NCBI GenBank assembly: GCA_951406725.2
Contig: OX597836.1
Location: 14,384,001 to 14,448,000 of the forward strand
DNA from: Octopus vulgaris
Lineage: Eukaryota
DNA length: 64,000 nucleotides
Reading direction: 5' to 3'
This document shows positions 1,663 through 49,343 of the stretch, in pieces (within the stretch, counting starts at the first letter, position 1; the number at the start of each line of letters is the position of its first letter). A program made the position numbers and the translations under genes. The notes beneath the pieces are model-generated. The model searched no databases and had not been told where the DNA came from. It saw nothing but the letters and a program-made list of their open reading frames with translations.

Positions 1663-1887
1663 TACAGTGTACATTTAAACACATATGAGGTAGCCATCAT
1701 AGGATTCCTTTCAAGCTAGAAAGAACAACTAAAGTCCAAACCACTATTATGGATAAAAACTCGAAACTAATTTTTCTACATCCCTTCGGGTTTTTATCCC
1801 TAATAGTGGTTTGGACTTTAGCTGTTCCTTCTAGCGTCAAAAGAATCCTGTGACGGATACCTCTTATGTGTTTAAATATACACTGTA
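1663..1887. repeat. Imperfect ~100-bp-arm inverted repeat adjoining (TA)n
   Basis: 1663-1765 is the reverse complement (with mismatches) of 1785-1887. Confidence 0.9.
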
Positions 1888-2212
1888 TTTATTTTGAATA
1901 ATATATAGTTTATTGATTTATTTTTCTACACGCTAAGCCACAGGTAGTAAAAATTTCTAAAACGTAAGCGAGTAAAACTAATGAAAAGAAACACAATATA
2001 GTTTCATTTTTCTCACTCGCTTACGTTCTGGCGTTTGCTAAAATTTTCTTGAGAACATTCCTTTCTTAGTGGTAAGACCATAGCGGATCTACTTCTAGCA
2101 TAATGGACGTCTCTCTTATATGTATGTAATATATTTTTTCTGAATCTTCAGATTTTAATATGCTAGACCACTGATTTTGAATTGATATTAAATTAATATT
2201 CAATTTTTCACC

Positions 2213-2325
2213 CTGAAAGGCAAAGTCGACCTCGGCGGAATTTGAACTCAGAACGTAACGACAGACGAAATACCGCTAAGCATTTCGCCCGGCGCGCTAA
2301 GGTGTCTGCCAGCTCGCCGCCTTAA
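2213..2325 (-). mobile_element. SINE family C fragment
   Basis: Reverse complement of AAGGCGGCGAGCTGGCAGA...GAGTTCAAATTCCGCCGAGGTCGACTTTGCC, also at 48165 and 58590-59350. Confidence 0.8.
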
Positions 2326-2965
2326 CGTCCAACAGAATATTGCAATGATGACGAAGGGGAACATGTTTCTTCACAAGTTCCCCCCCACCAATTCTTTTAA
2401 TGTGGGTTTTTTTTCTTGAAATCCTCCTCCCCCATTCCTCCTACATCACGCCACCTCACCTGCACATAATTTCAGCAAACCTAACCCCACAATTTTCGCA
2501 CAGTTTTCGCGCAACCTGCAACCGGCTCGGAGAATCCCTCTTCTTTCTCGTGCAATCTGGGTTAGGATAACATTTAAGGGATTTGTATAAACAGCCCTAC
2601 GGAAGAGAGAGGAAAGTCCAACGATTTGCCATTAGGAATCATAACAACAAAAACAGCAGCCATAACAATAACAACTACCACAAGACAAGACCAAGATTCT
2701 ATTTTCTATATATATATACCATTCGTTTTATTATCCATTATATATATGTGTGTGTGTGTGTATATATTTATATATATGTAAGTATATATATATATGTATG
2801 TACATATATATATGTATGTGTATATATATATATATATATATATATATATATATATATATATATATATATATATATATATATATATATATATATATATATA
2901 TATATATATATATATATATATATATATATATATTTAAAAAAAGGAGATGTCGAACACGAGTGGTG

Positions 2966-3288
2966 ATATATAAACAAGGAAATGAAGAAAATGCTGACAA
3001 ATAATTGAAGTAATTTAAGTAATTTAATTAGGTGAAAGTTCTTTTTACCGGTTGCGCATTTGTTATGCTTATCAAAATATAAAAGAGAGATTAGAGTTCC
3101 TTTCTTATAGAATTTTTCCTCTTATCTGATAAGAGGAAAAATTCTATAAGAAAGGAACTCTAATTTCTCTTTTATATTTTGATAAGCATAACAAATGCGC
3201 AACCGGTAAAAAGAACTTTCACCTAATTAAATTACTTAAATTACTTCAATTATTTGTCAGCATTTTCTTCATTTCCTTTTTTATATAT
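2966..3288. repeat. Near-perfect palindrome (~160-bp arms, 1-nt centre at 3127) between (TA)n tracts
   Basis: Base-by-base symmetry about 3127 with about 2 mismatches. Degenerate hammerhead-like motif TTGATAA-GCAT-aacaa-ATGC-GCAACCGGTA at 3179-3208. Confidence 0.95.
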
Positions 3289-3574
3289 ATATATATATAT
3301 ATACATATATACATATACATATATATATATATATATATATATATATATATATATATATATATATATATATATATGTATGTATATGAAGATATCTTCCTGA
3401 AATCTTTCACACCCTTGGATTTTTATCTCATCCTGTTAATTTTTTTTTATAAAGATATATAAATATATAGTGTGCACCTGTTTTCTGTTGGCCCCATAAT
3501 AACTAAAACAAATTAATGGACAGAAAATATGCCATATATATATGTGTGTGTGTGTATGTGTGTGTGTGTGTGTA

Positions 3575-3845
3575 GAAGACGTAAACACACTAACACCGGT
3601 TGTCAAGTGGTCTATGTGTGTTTGGTTGGGGACAAACACAGACACAAAACCACACGCACCTACACCCCTCCCCATACACTCATACACATACGACTGAATC
3701 CTTTCAGTTTCTGTTCGCCGAATCCACTCACAAGGCTTTTGTCGGCCCGATGCTACAGTGGGAGACACCTGCCCAAGGTGCCACGCAGTGGGACTGAACC
3801 CGGGGCCATGTGGTTGGGAAGCAAGACTCTTACCACGCAGCGACG
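3575..3845 (-). mobile_element. SINE family A, diverged
   Basis: Matches the family A head and body. Confidence 0.8.
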
Positions 3846-4249
3846 CACATTAATTTACACACACACACAAACACACACACACACACACACACACATACTG
3901 TCATGTACACACTCATGTACACACGCAACGTTCTATATCTCCTTTTCTTAGCATTTAATTCTACACATATAAACACACGCACACGCACACTCACATGCAT
4001 ATACACCCAGCTTGGATGTCAACTCTCTCTTCACATATACATACGTGCACACACACACACACACACACACACACACACACACACACACATACACACACAA
4101 ACACACACAAACATACACACACACACACACACACAGATGTAGACACACCCATCGCAAAATGTCACCGGTTGTATATATGTTTAGAGCGAAACCGTTTCAC
4201 ACCGAATTCTTTGAACGAGTGACAGCGCACCTTACACGTATATACACCT

Positions 4250-46415: not shown

Positions 46416-46790
46416 GTGGCACTCCTTCGGTTACGACGACGAGGGTTCCAGTTGATCCGATCAACGGAACAGCCTGCTCGTGAAATTAACGTTCGAGTGG
46501 CTGAGCACTCCACAGACACGTGTACCCTTAACGTAGTTCTCGGGGGAGATTCAGCGTGACACAGAATGTGACAAGGCTGGCCCCTTTGCAATACAGGTAC
46601 AACAGAAACAGGAAGAAAGACTGAGAGAAAGTTGTTGTAGAAGTGTACAGCAGGGTTCGCCACCATCCCCGGCCGAAGTCTCTTGGAAATTTAGGTGTTT
46701 TCGCTCAATAAACACTCACAACGCCCGGTCTGGGAATCGAAACCGCGATCCTACGACCGCAAGTCCACTGCCCTAACCACTGGACCGTAT
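46416..46790 (-). mobile_element. tRNA-derived SINE (family B-related)
   Basis: Head related to the 12726 copy; tail related to 61395-61545 and 61775-61950. Confidence 0.8.
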
Positions 46791-47363
46791 CTGTGTAAAT
46801 TAAATTCTTCATCATCATACCCAAAGCCTTACGGCAGGAACAAATTTGCGCACACAGAACACCCATATAAGTATGTACATATATATACATATAGAAATGT
46901 TTACCTTTATATATATATATATATATATATATATATATATATATATACACATACATATATATATGTACATACATACATGTATATATGTACATATACATGT
47001 ATATATGTATATATATATGTGTATGTATGTAAGTATATATATATATATATATATATATATATATATATATATACATTATATATACATACACATACACACA
47101 CACATTATATATAGATTATGCTTTATGTCAAGTGGTAAACAATTTTACATTACATTCAAGAATTGCTCAATAGTTTTTGTTGACTACATATTTATAGCAT
47201 TTTATAAGAGGTGTGACTATGAAGTAAATGTACACACACACACACACACAAACACAAATATATATATATGTGTGTGTGTGTATATATATATATACACGAG
47301 CATATATATGTAATGTATATGTATATATATATATATATATATATATATATATATATATATATA

Positions 47364-47705
47364 TATATAATATTAATTAGAGACAAAACCACTATTTTGC
47401 AAAACAAACAAGGAAAGACTTAATCAATACATAAAATTTTAATAAAAAGTAAAAAATAAAAAGTAAAAAAACTGATTTGAAAATCGGAAATCCACCTGAA
47501 GATTGTCATTAGAAGACATGAAACAATTGTAGTGGCGGTTTTTTTACTTTTTATTAAAATTGTATGTATTGATTAAGTCTTTCCTTGTTTGTTTTGCAAA
47601 ATAGTGGTTTTGTCTCTAATCAATATTATATAATATTTTACTATAAAATTGGATTTAATCCTAAATCTGATTTTTTCCCTGTAAATTTGGATTTATTCCC
47701 TAATA
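47364..47705 (+). mobile_element. (TA)n-embedded fold-back insert with a hammerhead in the spacer
   Basis: Inverted arms 47364-47455 / 47541-47632. The 3' tail ..TTTTTCCCTGTAAATTTGGATTTATTCCCTA is matched (reverse) by 5661-5720. Confidence 0.75.
47492..47535 (+). ncRNA. Minimal type-I hammerhead ribozyme motif, canonical core
   Basis: CCAC-CTGAAGA-T-TGTC-attagaa-GACA-T-GAAA-CAATTG-TA-GTGG; predicted cleavage after 47531. Confidence 0.72.
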
Positions 47706-47985
47706 TTTATTATTATATATATATATATATATATATATGAAAAAACAATATATATATATATATATATATATATATATATGAAAAAATATATATATATATA
47801 TATATATATATATATATATATATATATATATATATATACATATACATACATATATACATACATATTTAGAATATATATATATATATATATAGTTAATCGA
47901 TAAAAAGCGAAGAAAAAACAGCAGAAAAGAACAAGGCGAGGACGTGGTACAAGTATTAGCAGATGCTCAGAGAAGGAAAGAAAGA

Positions 47986-48025
47986 TTGTTTTACGTTTCG
48001 GGCAAGAGCTCTTCTTCAGAAACAA
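47986..48025 (-). ncRNA. Minimal type-I hammerhead ribozyme motif with loopless stem III
   Basis: Minus strand: TTGTTT-CTGAAGA-A-GAGC-tctt-GCCC-GAAA-CG-TA-AAACAA; 6-bp stem I; lies in insert 47890-48110, related to 19015-19090 and the 13.6/15.7 kb elements. Confidence 0.68.
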
Positions 48026-48164
48026 GAGACAGAGGAAAGTCCAAGACGCCAAGACGGAGGAAAAATCGCCAACGATACACATGTAGTTACATTTTGAAAT
48101 GTAAATGTGTGTTTTGACACACACACAGACACACACACACACACACATGTATATAGATAGATTT

Positions 48165-48335
48165 CAAATTTTGGTACAAGAGCAGCAAGATCGATATAAT
48201 CGAACTCAGTATTCCACTGGTACTTAATTATTCGACCACGAAGGAATGAAAGCAAGGTCGACTTCCGTGGAATTTGAACTCAGAGCGTAAAGACGGGCGA
48301 AATGTCGCTCAACGATTTTGCCAGCTCGCCACCTT
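48165..48335 (-). mobile_element. SINE family C
   Basis: Match to the 2213 and 58960 copies. Confidence 0.8.
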
Positions 48336-49343
48336 ATGTGTGTGTGTGTCGATAGATAGATAGATAGATAGATAGATAGATAGATAGATAGATAGATAGA
48401 TAGATAGATAGATAGATAGATAGATAGATAGATAGATAGATAGATAGATATGATATAGTTATGAGGATTTTTAAGAACCAAAGCACATCAATATGTAGGA
48501 CTCCAGAAATAGCTAAATACGTTCTTATAGAGCTCACATTTTGTACATCAAGTGCTTGCATCGTAATGTGGATTATGCAAGTACCAAATCCTATTTATAA
48601 CCATAGAGCCAACTCTCCAATAGATCCTTGATGGAATGTCGGTACACCAAATTTTGACTACGTACGAGTCGATGTTTAAAATTTTACCTCTTTAGAATTT
48701 TTTCTGATGATGGTGGATTTTATGTTATGAATGTCATCTTTTGCTACATTAAATAAAAAATTTTAAACAGTTGTAAACTTAAAACACTATCTGTTATACA
48801 TATATTCAAAAACAAAAGTTCGTTATCCATGTTCTTATTTTTTTATGTTCACGTTTTTCATTTTGTTCACGTTTTTGTTTGACGTCCTGTACCCATATGT
48901 GCATGTATATATACATATATATGTAGATATGTACATATATGTATATATATATATATATATATATATATATATATATATATATATATATATATATATATAT
49001 ATATATATATTTCTTTACCTTCACCCATTTAATGCAATAAGTAAGTTTATTGCATTGCAATTAAAAACACTTGTGTATTAATAATTGGGTATTATACCAA
49101 CAGTATATTGGATTAGTATTATCCCTTAGTGGGTTGGATCCACAACCCCTAACTTACTTGGTGTTTTATATATATATATATATGTATATATATATATGTA
49201 TTATGTATGTATGTATATACATATATATATAAATATATATAATATATAAATATGTGTGTGGGTTTGTGTGTGTGTGTGTGTATGCATGTATGCATATACG
49301 TGCGTGTTTAGCATGTGTGTGTATTAGAAACAAACGTACTTAC

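Follow-up and report, generated by a model that had tools for sequence, protein, structure and literature searches.

A 64-kb stretch of the Octopus vulgaris genome (positions 14,384,001 to 14,448,000 of contig OX597836.1, assembly GCA_951406725.2; hereafter the window), in which (TA)n and other microsatellites are abundant, carries a crowd of short inserts that fold back on themselves or bear a minimal hammerhead ribozyme motif. A sequence-only reading had described them as a diverse system of non-coding elements, being the termini or non-autonomous derivatives of Penelope-like retroelements (PLEs). This observation is partly confirmed by our analysis: the system is ordinary PLE debris, yet a dense one, with at least 11 families in 64 kb. 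The terminus reading is supported by six of the 11 families, which continue upstream, on the same strand, into coding sequence for a reverse transcriptase (RT) or a GIY-YIG endonuclease (EN); most inserts are accordingly truncated PLE copies rather than a separate non-coding system. A PLE origin of the inserts is very likely. They would represent the 3' ends, comprising a pseudo-long terminal repeat (pLTR) and a minimal type-I hammerhead motif, of many PLE families sitting in (TA)n.

Inserts and hammerhead motifs of the window

Self-BLAST of the window with its microsatellites masked returned nine of ten fold-backs that had been listed by position; that at 19168 was not returned and, inspected by eye, has weak arms around an 18-nt central palindrome. 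The fold-backs and other inserts, with family letters A to K as defined in the next section, are as follows.

1665–1885: family G fold-back, a PLE-type 3' end; tail only on the right arm, from 1886
2934–3281: family F fold-back; arms 2973–3281, tail only on the left, 2934–2972
3179–3208, plus strand: hammerhead-like motif of family F, degenerate in having U3-A8, A13C and a 5-nt insert 5' of the core
5645–5874: family J fold-back; arms 5754–5874, inverted tail 5645–5732
8051–8496: family D fold-back, the window's copy and the only event of this family in which both arms bear a tail
8295–8320, plus strand: minimal hammerhead of family D; UUGAAGA core preceded by an extra U, palindrome ACCGGU
13640–14040: family A fold-back that encloses (TA)n(GA)n; A6U hammerhead-like motif at 13736–13763, minus strand
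15707–16086: family A fold-back; A6U motifs at 15798–15825, minus strand, and 15965–15992, plus strand
19128–19291: weak fold-back between (TA)n tracts, found by eye; no match in the fetched loci
29316–29575: family I fold-back; arms 29316–29481, tail on the right
29660–29692, plus strand: decayed hammerhead motif in a single-arm insert, 29624–29761
32807–33013: family H fold-back; arms 32807–32899, tail on the right
36494–36740, minus strand: family E single arm; canonical-core hammerhead at 36534–36610 with a long stem II
41207–41612, plus strand: family K single arm; hammerhead at 41487–41530, U4C
45085–45114, minus strand: hammerhead motif with a U3-A8 core
47370–47713: family B fold-back; arms 47370–47626, tail on the right, hammerhead at 47496–47531, plus strand
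47892–48085, minus strand: family C single arm, of an old family (~82% identity); canonical hammerhead at 47992–48019

Fold-back and hammerhead had been presented as parts of one insert, a combination that is not constant: of the nine confirmed fold-backs, four, at 1665, 5754, 29316 and 32807, are cut downstream of or inside the hammerhead of their family, and the hammerhead sites at 29660, 36534, 41487, 45085 and 47992, five in all, sit in single-arm inserts. At 1665–1885 the family G hammerhead, with a UUGAUGA core, belongs upstream of the retained portion, and the family H fold-back turns immediately 5' of the stem III palindrome; a second copy of the latter, at 35099–35191, stems from a local duplication. 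The family F motif, missing from the earlier list, has a minus-strand mirror at 3046–3075, and the family D hammerhead an altered mirror copy at 8229–8254 on the minus strand. Two low-complexity AT/CA-rich fold-backs, at 31526–31648 and 37745–38305, have no assigned family, the second showing weak 72–76% matches in four fetched loci.

All nine hammerhead sites proposed from the sequence carry a core, stem II, GAAA, a palindrome and UH, while the consensus YUGANGA given for their core fits only five of them (8295, 29660, 36534, 47496 and 47992). Those at 13736 and 15798 read CUGUNGA (A6U), that at 41487 reads CCGAUGA (U4C) with a stem I of 3 bp, and that at 45085 reads UUGAUAA (U3-A8). The minimal type-I core with C3-A9, G12-A14, A15.1-U16.1, H17, helices I and II and a palindromic helix III is present, in several families as a variant, and, as had been proposed, stem III palindromes and stem I pairs vary among families yet remain complementary. 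Motif counts exceed the shuffled expectation with both the original and a relaxed core. A first descriptor scan of the window gave five motifs versus 0.05 per shuffle; against 100 block-wise dinucleotide shuffles, the original core gave four versus 0.05 expected and the relaxed core, broadened only once the sites had been inspected, ten versus 0.88 expected (maximum 3), of which the match at 38558 is probably due to chance. Rfam found nothing in the window at gathering score; at E ≤ 10 it returned 910 matches, of which the 150 listed were microRNA models, mostly on microsatellites and all below gathering score. Two of the motif sites, searched by themselves at the same threshold, matched no Rfam hammerhead family. 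The motifs lack a normal helix III. Folded as monomers, ten excerpts, four of them wrongly cut, gave uninformative z-scores of -1.8 to +0.9.

Families, coding sequence and hammerhead cores

Twelve DNA searches of the animal's own genome (a 2.8-Gb assembly of 227 contigs), in each of which the best 40 of 672–3,919 first-look candidates were scored, yielded 11 families, A to K. Among the 290 loci in which the 3' ends were examined are the window's own copies, and a few of the events are represented from both arms. Across families the 3' end is fixed and followed by (TA)n, and the 5' truncation is variable; single arms occur in every family that has two-arm copies. The suspected enrichment of insertion ends at (TA)n is borne out, (TA)4 lying within 140 nt in 237 of the 290 loci versus 18–39% at random positions in the same loci. 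The window itself had been said to hold no PLE coding sequence, and tblastn with 127 PLE-type queries indeed gave no match there.

Family D is young, with copies 98–99% identical and a ladder of 5' truncations that runs from 43 to more than 1,500 bp. Some 120 bp upstream of its terminus stands a frame of 489 aa that has RT and GIY-YIG regions and a Cx4CxxC linker (RVT_1, E=4e-6; GIY-YIG, E=0.011; both below the Pfam cut-offs). The protein has 475 homologs at a threshold of E ≤ 1e-20, the 120 listed including proteins that Pfam annotates with RVT_1 and GIY-YIG, and its best species-named match is from Argonauta hians (53%). In family B, two direct terminal copies at a spacing of 5,556 bp enclose a stop-broken RT frame in a unit of the form pLTR–open reading frame (ORF)–pLTR, and the tail runs on into the start region of the ORF; among the coding families, a pLTR in direct tandem around an ORF was seen only here. 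Families A, F, H and J are linked by tblastn to coding pieces: A to RT and GIY-YIG, H to RT and EN, F to a GIY-YIG end ~730 bp upstream, and one copy of J to a GIY-YIG-type end. The Cx4CxxC linker and a CCHH-type EN could be read directly in families A and D; Pfam did not detect the decayed fragments of A and B, and a search for solved-structure relatives gave none at E ≤ 0.001. We presume that A, D and F are Neptune-like and that B, H and J are Nematis-like. Families C, E, G, I and K have the same end architecture as the coding-linked families; an antisense ORF upstream of family E, sought by eye and with tblastn, could not be established.

The retrozyme or non-autonomous part of the sequence-only reading applies at most to family G, that of the fold-back at 1665. 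In a small sample of this family, a ~460-bp unit is repeated head to tail (spacing of 462 and 471 bp, in two loci, L199 and L208), its tail-to-start joint being identical at two independent places (L199 and L206/L209), and the family may be non-autonomous. The insert at 1665 was also considered as a Tc1-type miniature inverted-repeat transposable element (MITE), a reading rejected on account of its variable arms, its tail and the upstream hammerhead; more generally, the fixed length and symmetrical terminal inverted repeats of a MITE were looked for, and variable arms and asymmetric ends were found instead.

A few observations concern the copies themselves. The family B copies of the window's type (L061–L090) all stop within ~30 bp on the upstream side of the query, close to a short, naturally occurring inverted repeat, and the other subfamily extends into the ORF. 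Beside one further family B copy (L096) stand the long frames of an apparently near-complete long interspersed element (LINE) with an apurinic/apyrimidinic endonuclease and an RT. At four loci (L091, L092, L259 and L263) distinct PLE families are stacked beside or within each other at shared (TA)n sites.

The hammerhead core is canonical in families B, C and E and in the longer copies of H, I and J, and a variant in families A, D, F, G and K. In G, H, I and J the hammerhead lies upstream in longer copies (CUGANGA in those of family I), and the motif is missing from the copies in the window. The variants are close to fixed: A6U in 29/30 copies of family A, U4C in 22/25 of family K, U3 with G8 in 30/30 of family D, a combination recurring in family G, and U3-A8 with A13C in 30/30 of family F. 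Because A6C, U4C and inserts near C3 are reported to lower activity (PMC3088659), the hammerheads of families A, D, F and K may have little activity or none. The hammerheads in general would cut only when dimeric or assisted by protein, and some of the variant cores may be dead altogether. Contigs from four runs presumed to be RNA cover family D free of joints or end pile-ups, and are not used as evidence.

Two-arm insertions and their origin

Tails, which measure ~30 to ~110 nt depending on the family, were counted over nine families, no tail being defined for A or C, with duplicate events from overlapping loci merged by script. Exactly one of the two arms bears the tail in 136 of 146 two-arm events, with five events lacking it and five having it on both arms; leaving out family D, the count is 111 of 120. 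Among single arms (family J left out) 40/91 have a tail, so that independent choice would give one-tail events in about half of the cases. The idea that tailless single arms hide an inverted remnant consisting of the tail alone applies to few loci, 48/97 tailless arms having no inverted tail within 1,450 bp.

Family D, in which 63 locus records reduce to 40 events, 29 of them two-arm, provides the finer anatomy. Its tailless arms stop at one internal TATATA (28/31 within 5 nt). The 5' ends of the two arms lie within 30 nt of each other in 11 of 29 events versus 3.0 on permutation, none of 10,000 permutations reaching 11. The tail arm is the longer in 17 events, the shorter in eight and equal in two, and the tailless arm can exceed it by up to 896 bp. 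The joints comprise 16 with 1–5 nt of overlap, five that are blunt and eight with inserts of 1–14 nt. Rare variants are shared by the arms of one insertion at 30 of 7,000 sites versus 196 of 280,520 between insertions, i.e., six times more often (25 two-arm events were used, of which 23 overlap enough). In family F, six insertions have an identical 309-bp length and joint, a frequency inflated by a query that held this center, and the central base falls on the tail arm's side in three and on the opposite side in three.

Fold centers coincide exactly with natural short palindromes at three loci (L233, L234 and L054), and those of family H lie on the stem III palindrome of the hammerhead. The joint inserts at L133, L139, L150 and L042 are short copies of adjacent element sequence, and presumably resemble the scars of polymerase-theta end-joining.

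The data favour, short of proof, an origin of these insertions from two primings on one RNA. The element's protein would cut the (TA)n target on both strands and prime two complementary DNAs (cDNAs) on the same RNA, one at an outer and one at an inner start site, after which the free cDNA ends would probably be united by host end-joining. A single template is indicated because the arms share variants and have coupled ends; we infer this template, the use of one start site per strand and the mode of joining. A precedent is the lizard PLE protein, a predicted dimer that cleaves and extends the two target strands, begins synthesis at two RNA sites flanking the tail and dispenses in vitro with hammerhead cleavage (PMC11167929). 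As a whole, the account of the inserts as 5'-truncated PLE 3' ends with fold-backs formed by dual priming on one RNA has, in our estimate, a probability of about 0.85. The dual-priming step taken by itself is tentative, and short of an even chance. A stricter form, in which twin priming is obligatorily asymmetric, a protein dimer making one cDNA at each tail-bounding site of a single RNA to leave exactly one tail and co-terminating arms, is a shade more tentative still.

The most serious competitor, which we nonetheless think unlikely, is a snap-back, i.e., that the first cDNA folds on itself and is copied back, the copy ending or being cleaved at the internal TA run and so falling short of the tail. 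This accounts for the single template, the shared variants, the coupled ends and the microhomology, as well as for the tail arm being more often the longer (17 versus 8), and self-priming has been proposed for PLE palindromes, there on an antisense template (PMC3846280). However, under a snap-back the tail arm should never be the shorter one, yet it is in 8/27 events, by up to 896 bp; because tailless single arms are common, many fold-backs with no tail are also expected, of which only 5/146 were seen. Several joints moreover have loops of 0–1 nt, and a snap-back requires a later rearrangement of the center.

Self-standing non-autonomous retrozymes or MITEs, moving as hairpin units, are improbable. 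The tandem family G unit, with the same joint at two independent places and no link to an ORF, would suit them, as would families C, E, I and K, for which no ORF was found; against this, arm lengths and joints vary by locus, many copies have a single arm, six families continue into RT or EN sequence, and MITEs would show symmetrical, fixed ends. Priming of both target ends by two independent RNAs at random start sites agrees with the predicted dimer (PMC11167929) and with the fact that either arm can be the longer; yet it predicts one-tail events in about half of the cases and uncorrelated ends rather than the 136/146 and the strong coupling seen, and the arms share variants, so that it is disfavored and very improbable. 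The least probable of all is a secondary origin in the DNA itself, fragile (TA)n tracts breaking and being repaired with copying of adjacent sequence, as the two family-less low-complexity fold-backs might suggest, since this leaves unexplained the family-specific internal stop on one arm with the tail kept on the other, and the abundant SINE-like (short interspersed element-like) repeats beside (TA)n show no such head-to-head fold-backs in the self-BLAST of the window.

Several points weigh against dual priming on one RNA and the PLE account around it. The scored candidates are a non-random selection and do not give copy numbers; the ORF links of families F, H and J come from one or two loci each, and no such link was found for C, E, G, I and K. 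The first query for family D required a tail and those for F, H and I contained the fold center, and the one-tail rule is broken in 10 of 146 events, the window's own family D copy included. In vitro, the two strands are alike in their use of start sites (PMC11167929), a result that leaves the pairing within one event untouched. Shared variants could arise by gene conversion between arms, and a later inversion or deletion of the palindrome center could make either arm longer and so rescue the snap-back. As for the hammerhead, its core is better conserved than its flanks only in family C (0/290 versus 191/3,407), which could stem from word seeding; the excess in six other families is not significant, and the 5' ends of family D show no pile-up at the predicted cut, none falling on it and 3/67 lying 3–4 nt downstream.

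Implications, surroundings and known systems

The counted asymmetry rule makes one mechanistic question testable: one tail in 136/146 events, coupled ends and the freedom of either arm to be longer together give a precise prediction for the PLE system already available in vitro. How PLEs come to form tandem and inverted structures, and why they favor microsatellites, have been named as open questions (PMC8557442). The core variants fixed in expanding families are ready substrates for asking how important the hammerhead is: if the present account is true, the fixation of non-canonical cores in young families (A6U; A13C with U3-A8) would show that these elements spread without a working hammerhead or, alternatively, that the hammerhead core tolerates changes not yet described. 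On the practical side, PLE palindromes are readily mis-annotated as MITEs or microRNA hairpins.

As to the surroundings, an open frame at 49327–50034 on the minus strand contains a full DM DNA-binding domain (PF00751, E=5e-23) and is a Dmrt/doublesex-type exon, downstream of which the PLE ends crowd. The segments ~31800–34090 and 34090–36380 form a near-identical (99%) tandem duplication of ~2.29 kb that contains a SINE-like repeat and the family H fold-back, and is either a recent duplication or an assembly artefact. A 155-aa frame at 45346–45813 on the plus strand, which had no Pfam match, we take to resemble the C-terminal end of a CR1/L2-type LINE. A ~390-bp repeat that contains an internal duplication of ~100 bp is present in two copies, 95% identical and both at TA sites (943–1330 and 44682–45066). 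There are also a MITE-like pair of inverted ~110-bp arms with a 280-bp spacer (19683–19794 and 20078–20188) and a tandem array of a 32-bp unit at 14501–14960.

PLE families of Octopus vulgaris have been counted (PMC13282606), the word hammerhead being absent from the accessible text of that work; a literature search combining Penelope-like, hammerhead and octopus returned only PMC8557442, and the dual-priming idea is stated nowhere in the literature searched, which left most subscription papers outside. The closest relatives of the elements described here are the EN+ PLEs (Craig et al. 2021, PMC8557442; Arkhipova et al. 2013, PMC3846280), with which they share 5' truncation, an adjacent inverted 5'-truncated copy, a tail that is often single-ended, a bias to (TA)n targets and an RT followed by GIY-YIG with a Cx2-5CxxC linker. 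The octopus elements accordingly show an RT and then a C-terminal GIY-YIG upstream of the terminal repeat, in one frame in family D and in pieces in A, B, F, H and J, together with the fixed 3' end, the 5' truncation, the inverted truncated copy and the one-sided tail. In the accessible portions of those two papers the one-sided tail is described uncounted, and a coupling of arm ends is unreported.

The hammerheads match the minimal ones of metazoan PLEs (Cervera and De la Pena 2014, PMC4209133) in being type I with a short helix I, in the extra base between 9 and 10.1, the palindromic 15.2-16.2 and the U3-A8 variant, and in occurring mostly as single motifs from truncated PLEs, with opposite-strand pairs 100–700 bp apart; the family-wide A6U (A), U4C (K), U3 with G8 (D and G) and A13C with U3-A8 (F) do not appear in the available part of that paper. 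The Poseidon element PAc of Anolis (Frangieh et al. 2024, PMC11167929) is comparable in its two RT start sites bounding the tail, its AT-rich targets, the cutting and extension of both strands and a hammerhead cut that is unneeded; inverted two-arm insertions are not addressed in the accessible text of that study, where the word inverted appears a single time, of a blocking group, and which gives no strand difference in start site. The non-LTR retrozymes (bioRxiv 10.64898/2026.07.22.740005) are short tandem hammerhead units related to PLE pLTRs, similar to the unit of family G and unlike the six families here that are truncated coding elements. For PLEs, the literature already describes minimal hammerheads, truncated copies in inverted orientation, tails at one end only and (TA)n targets; what is added here is the counted one-tail asymmetry, the coupling of the arm ends and the finding that either arm can be the longer.

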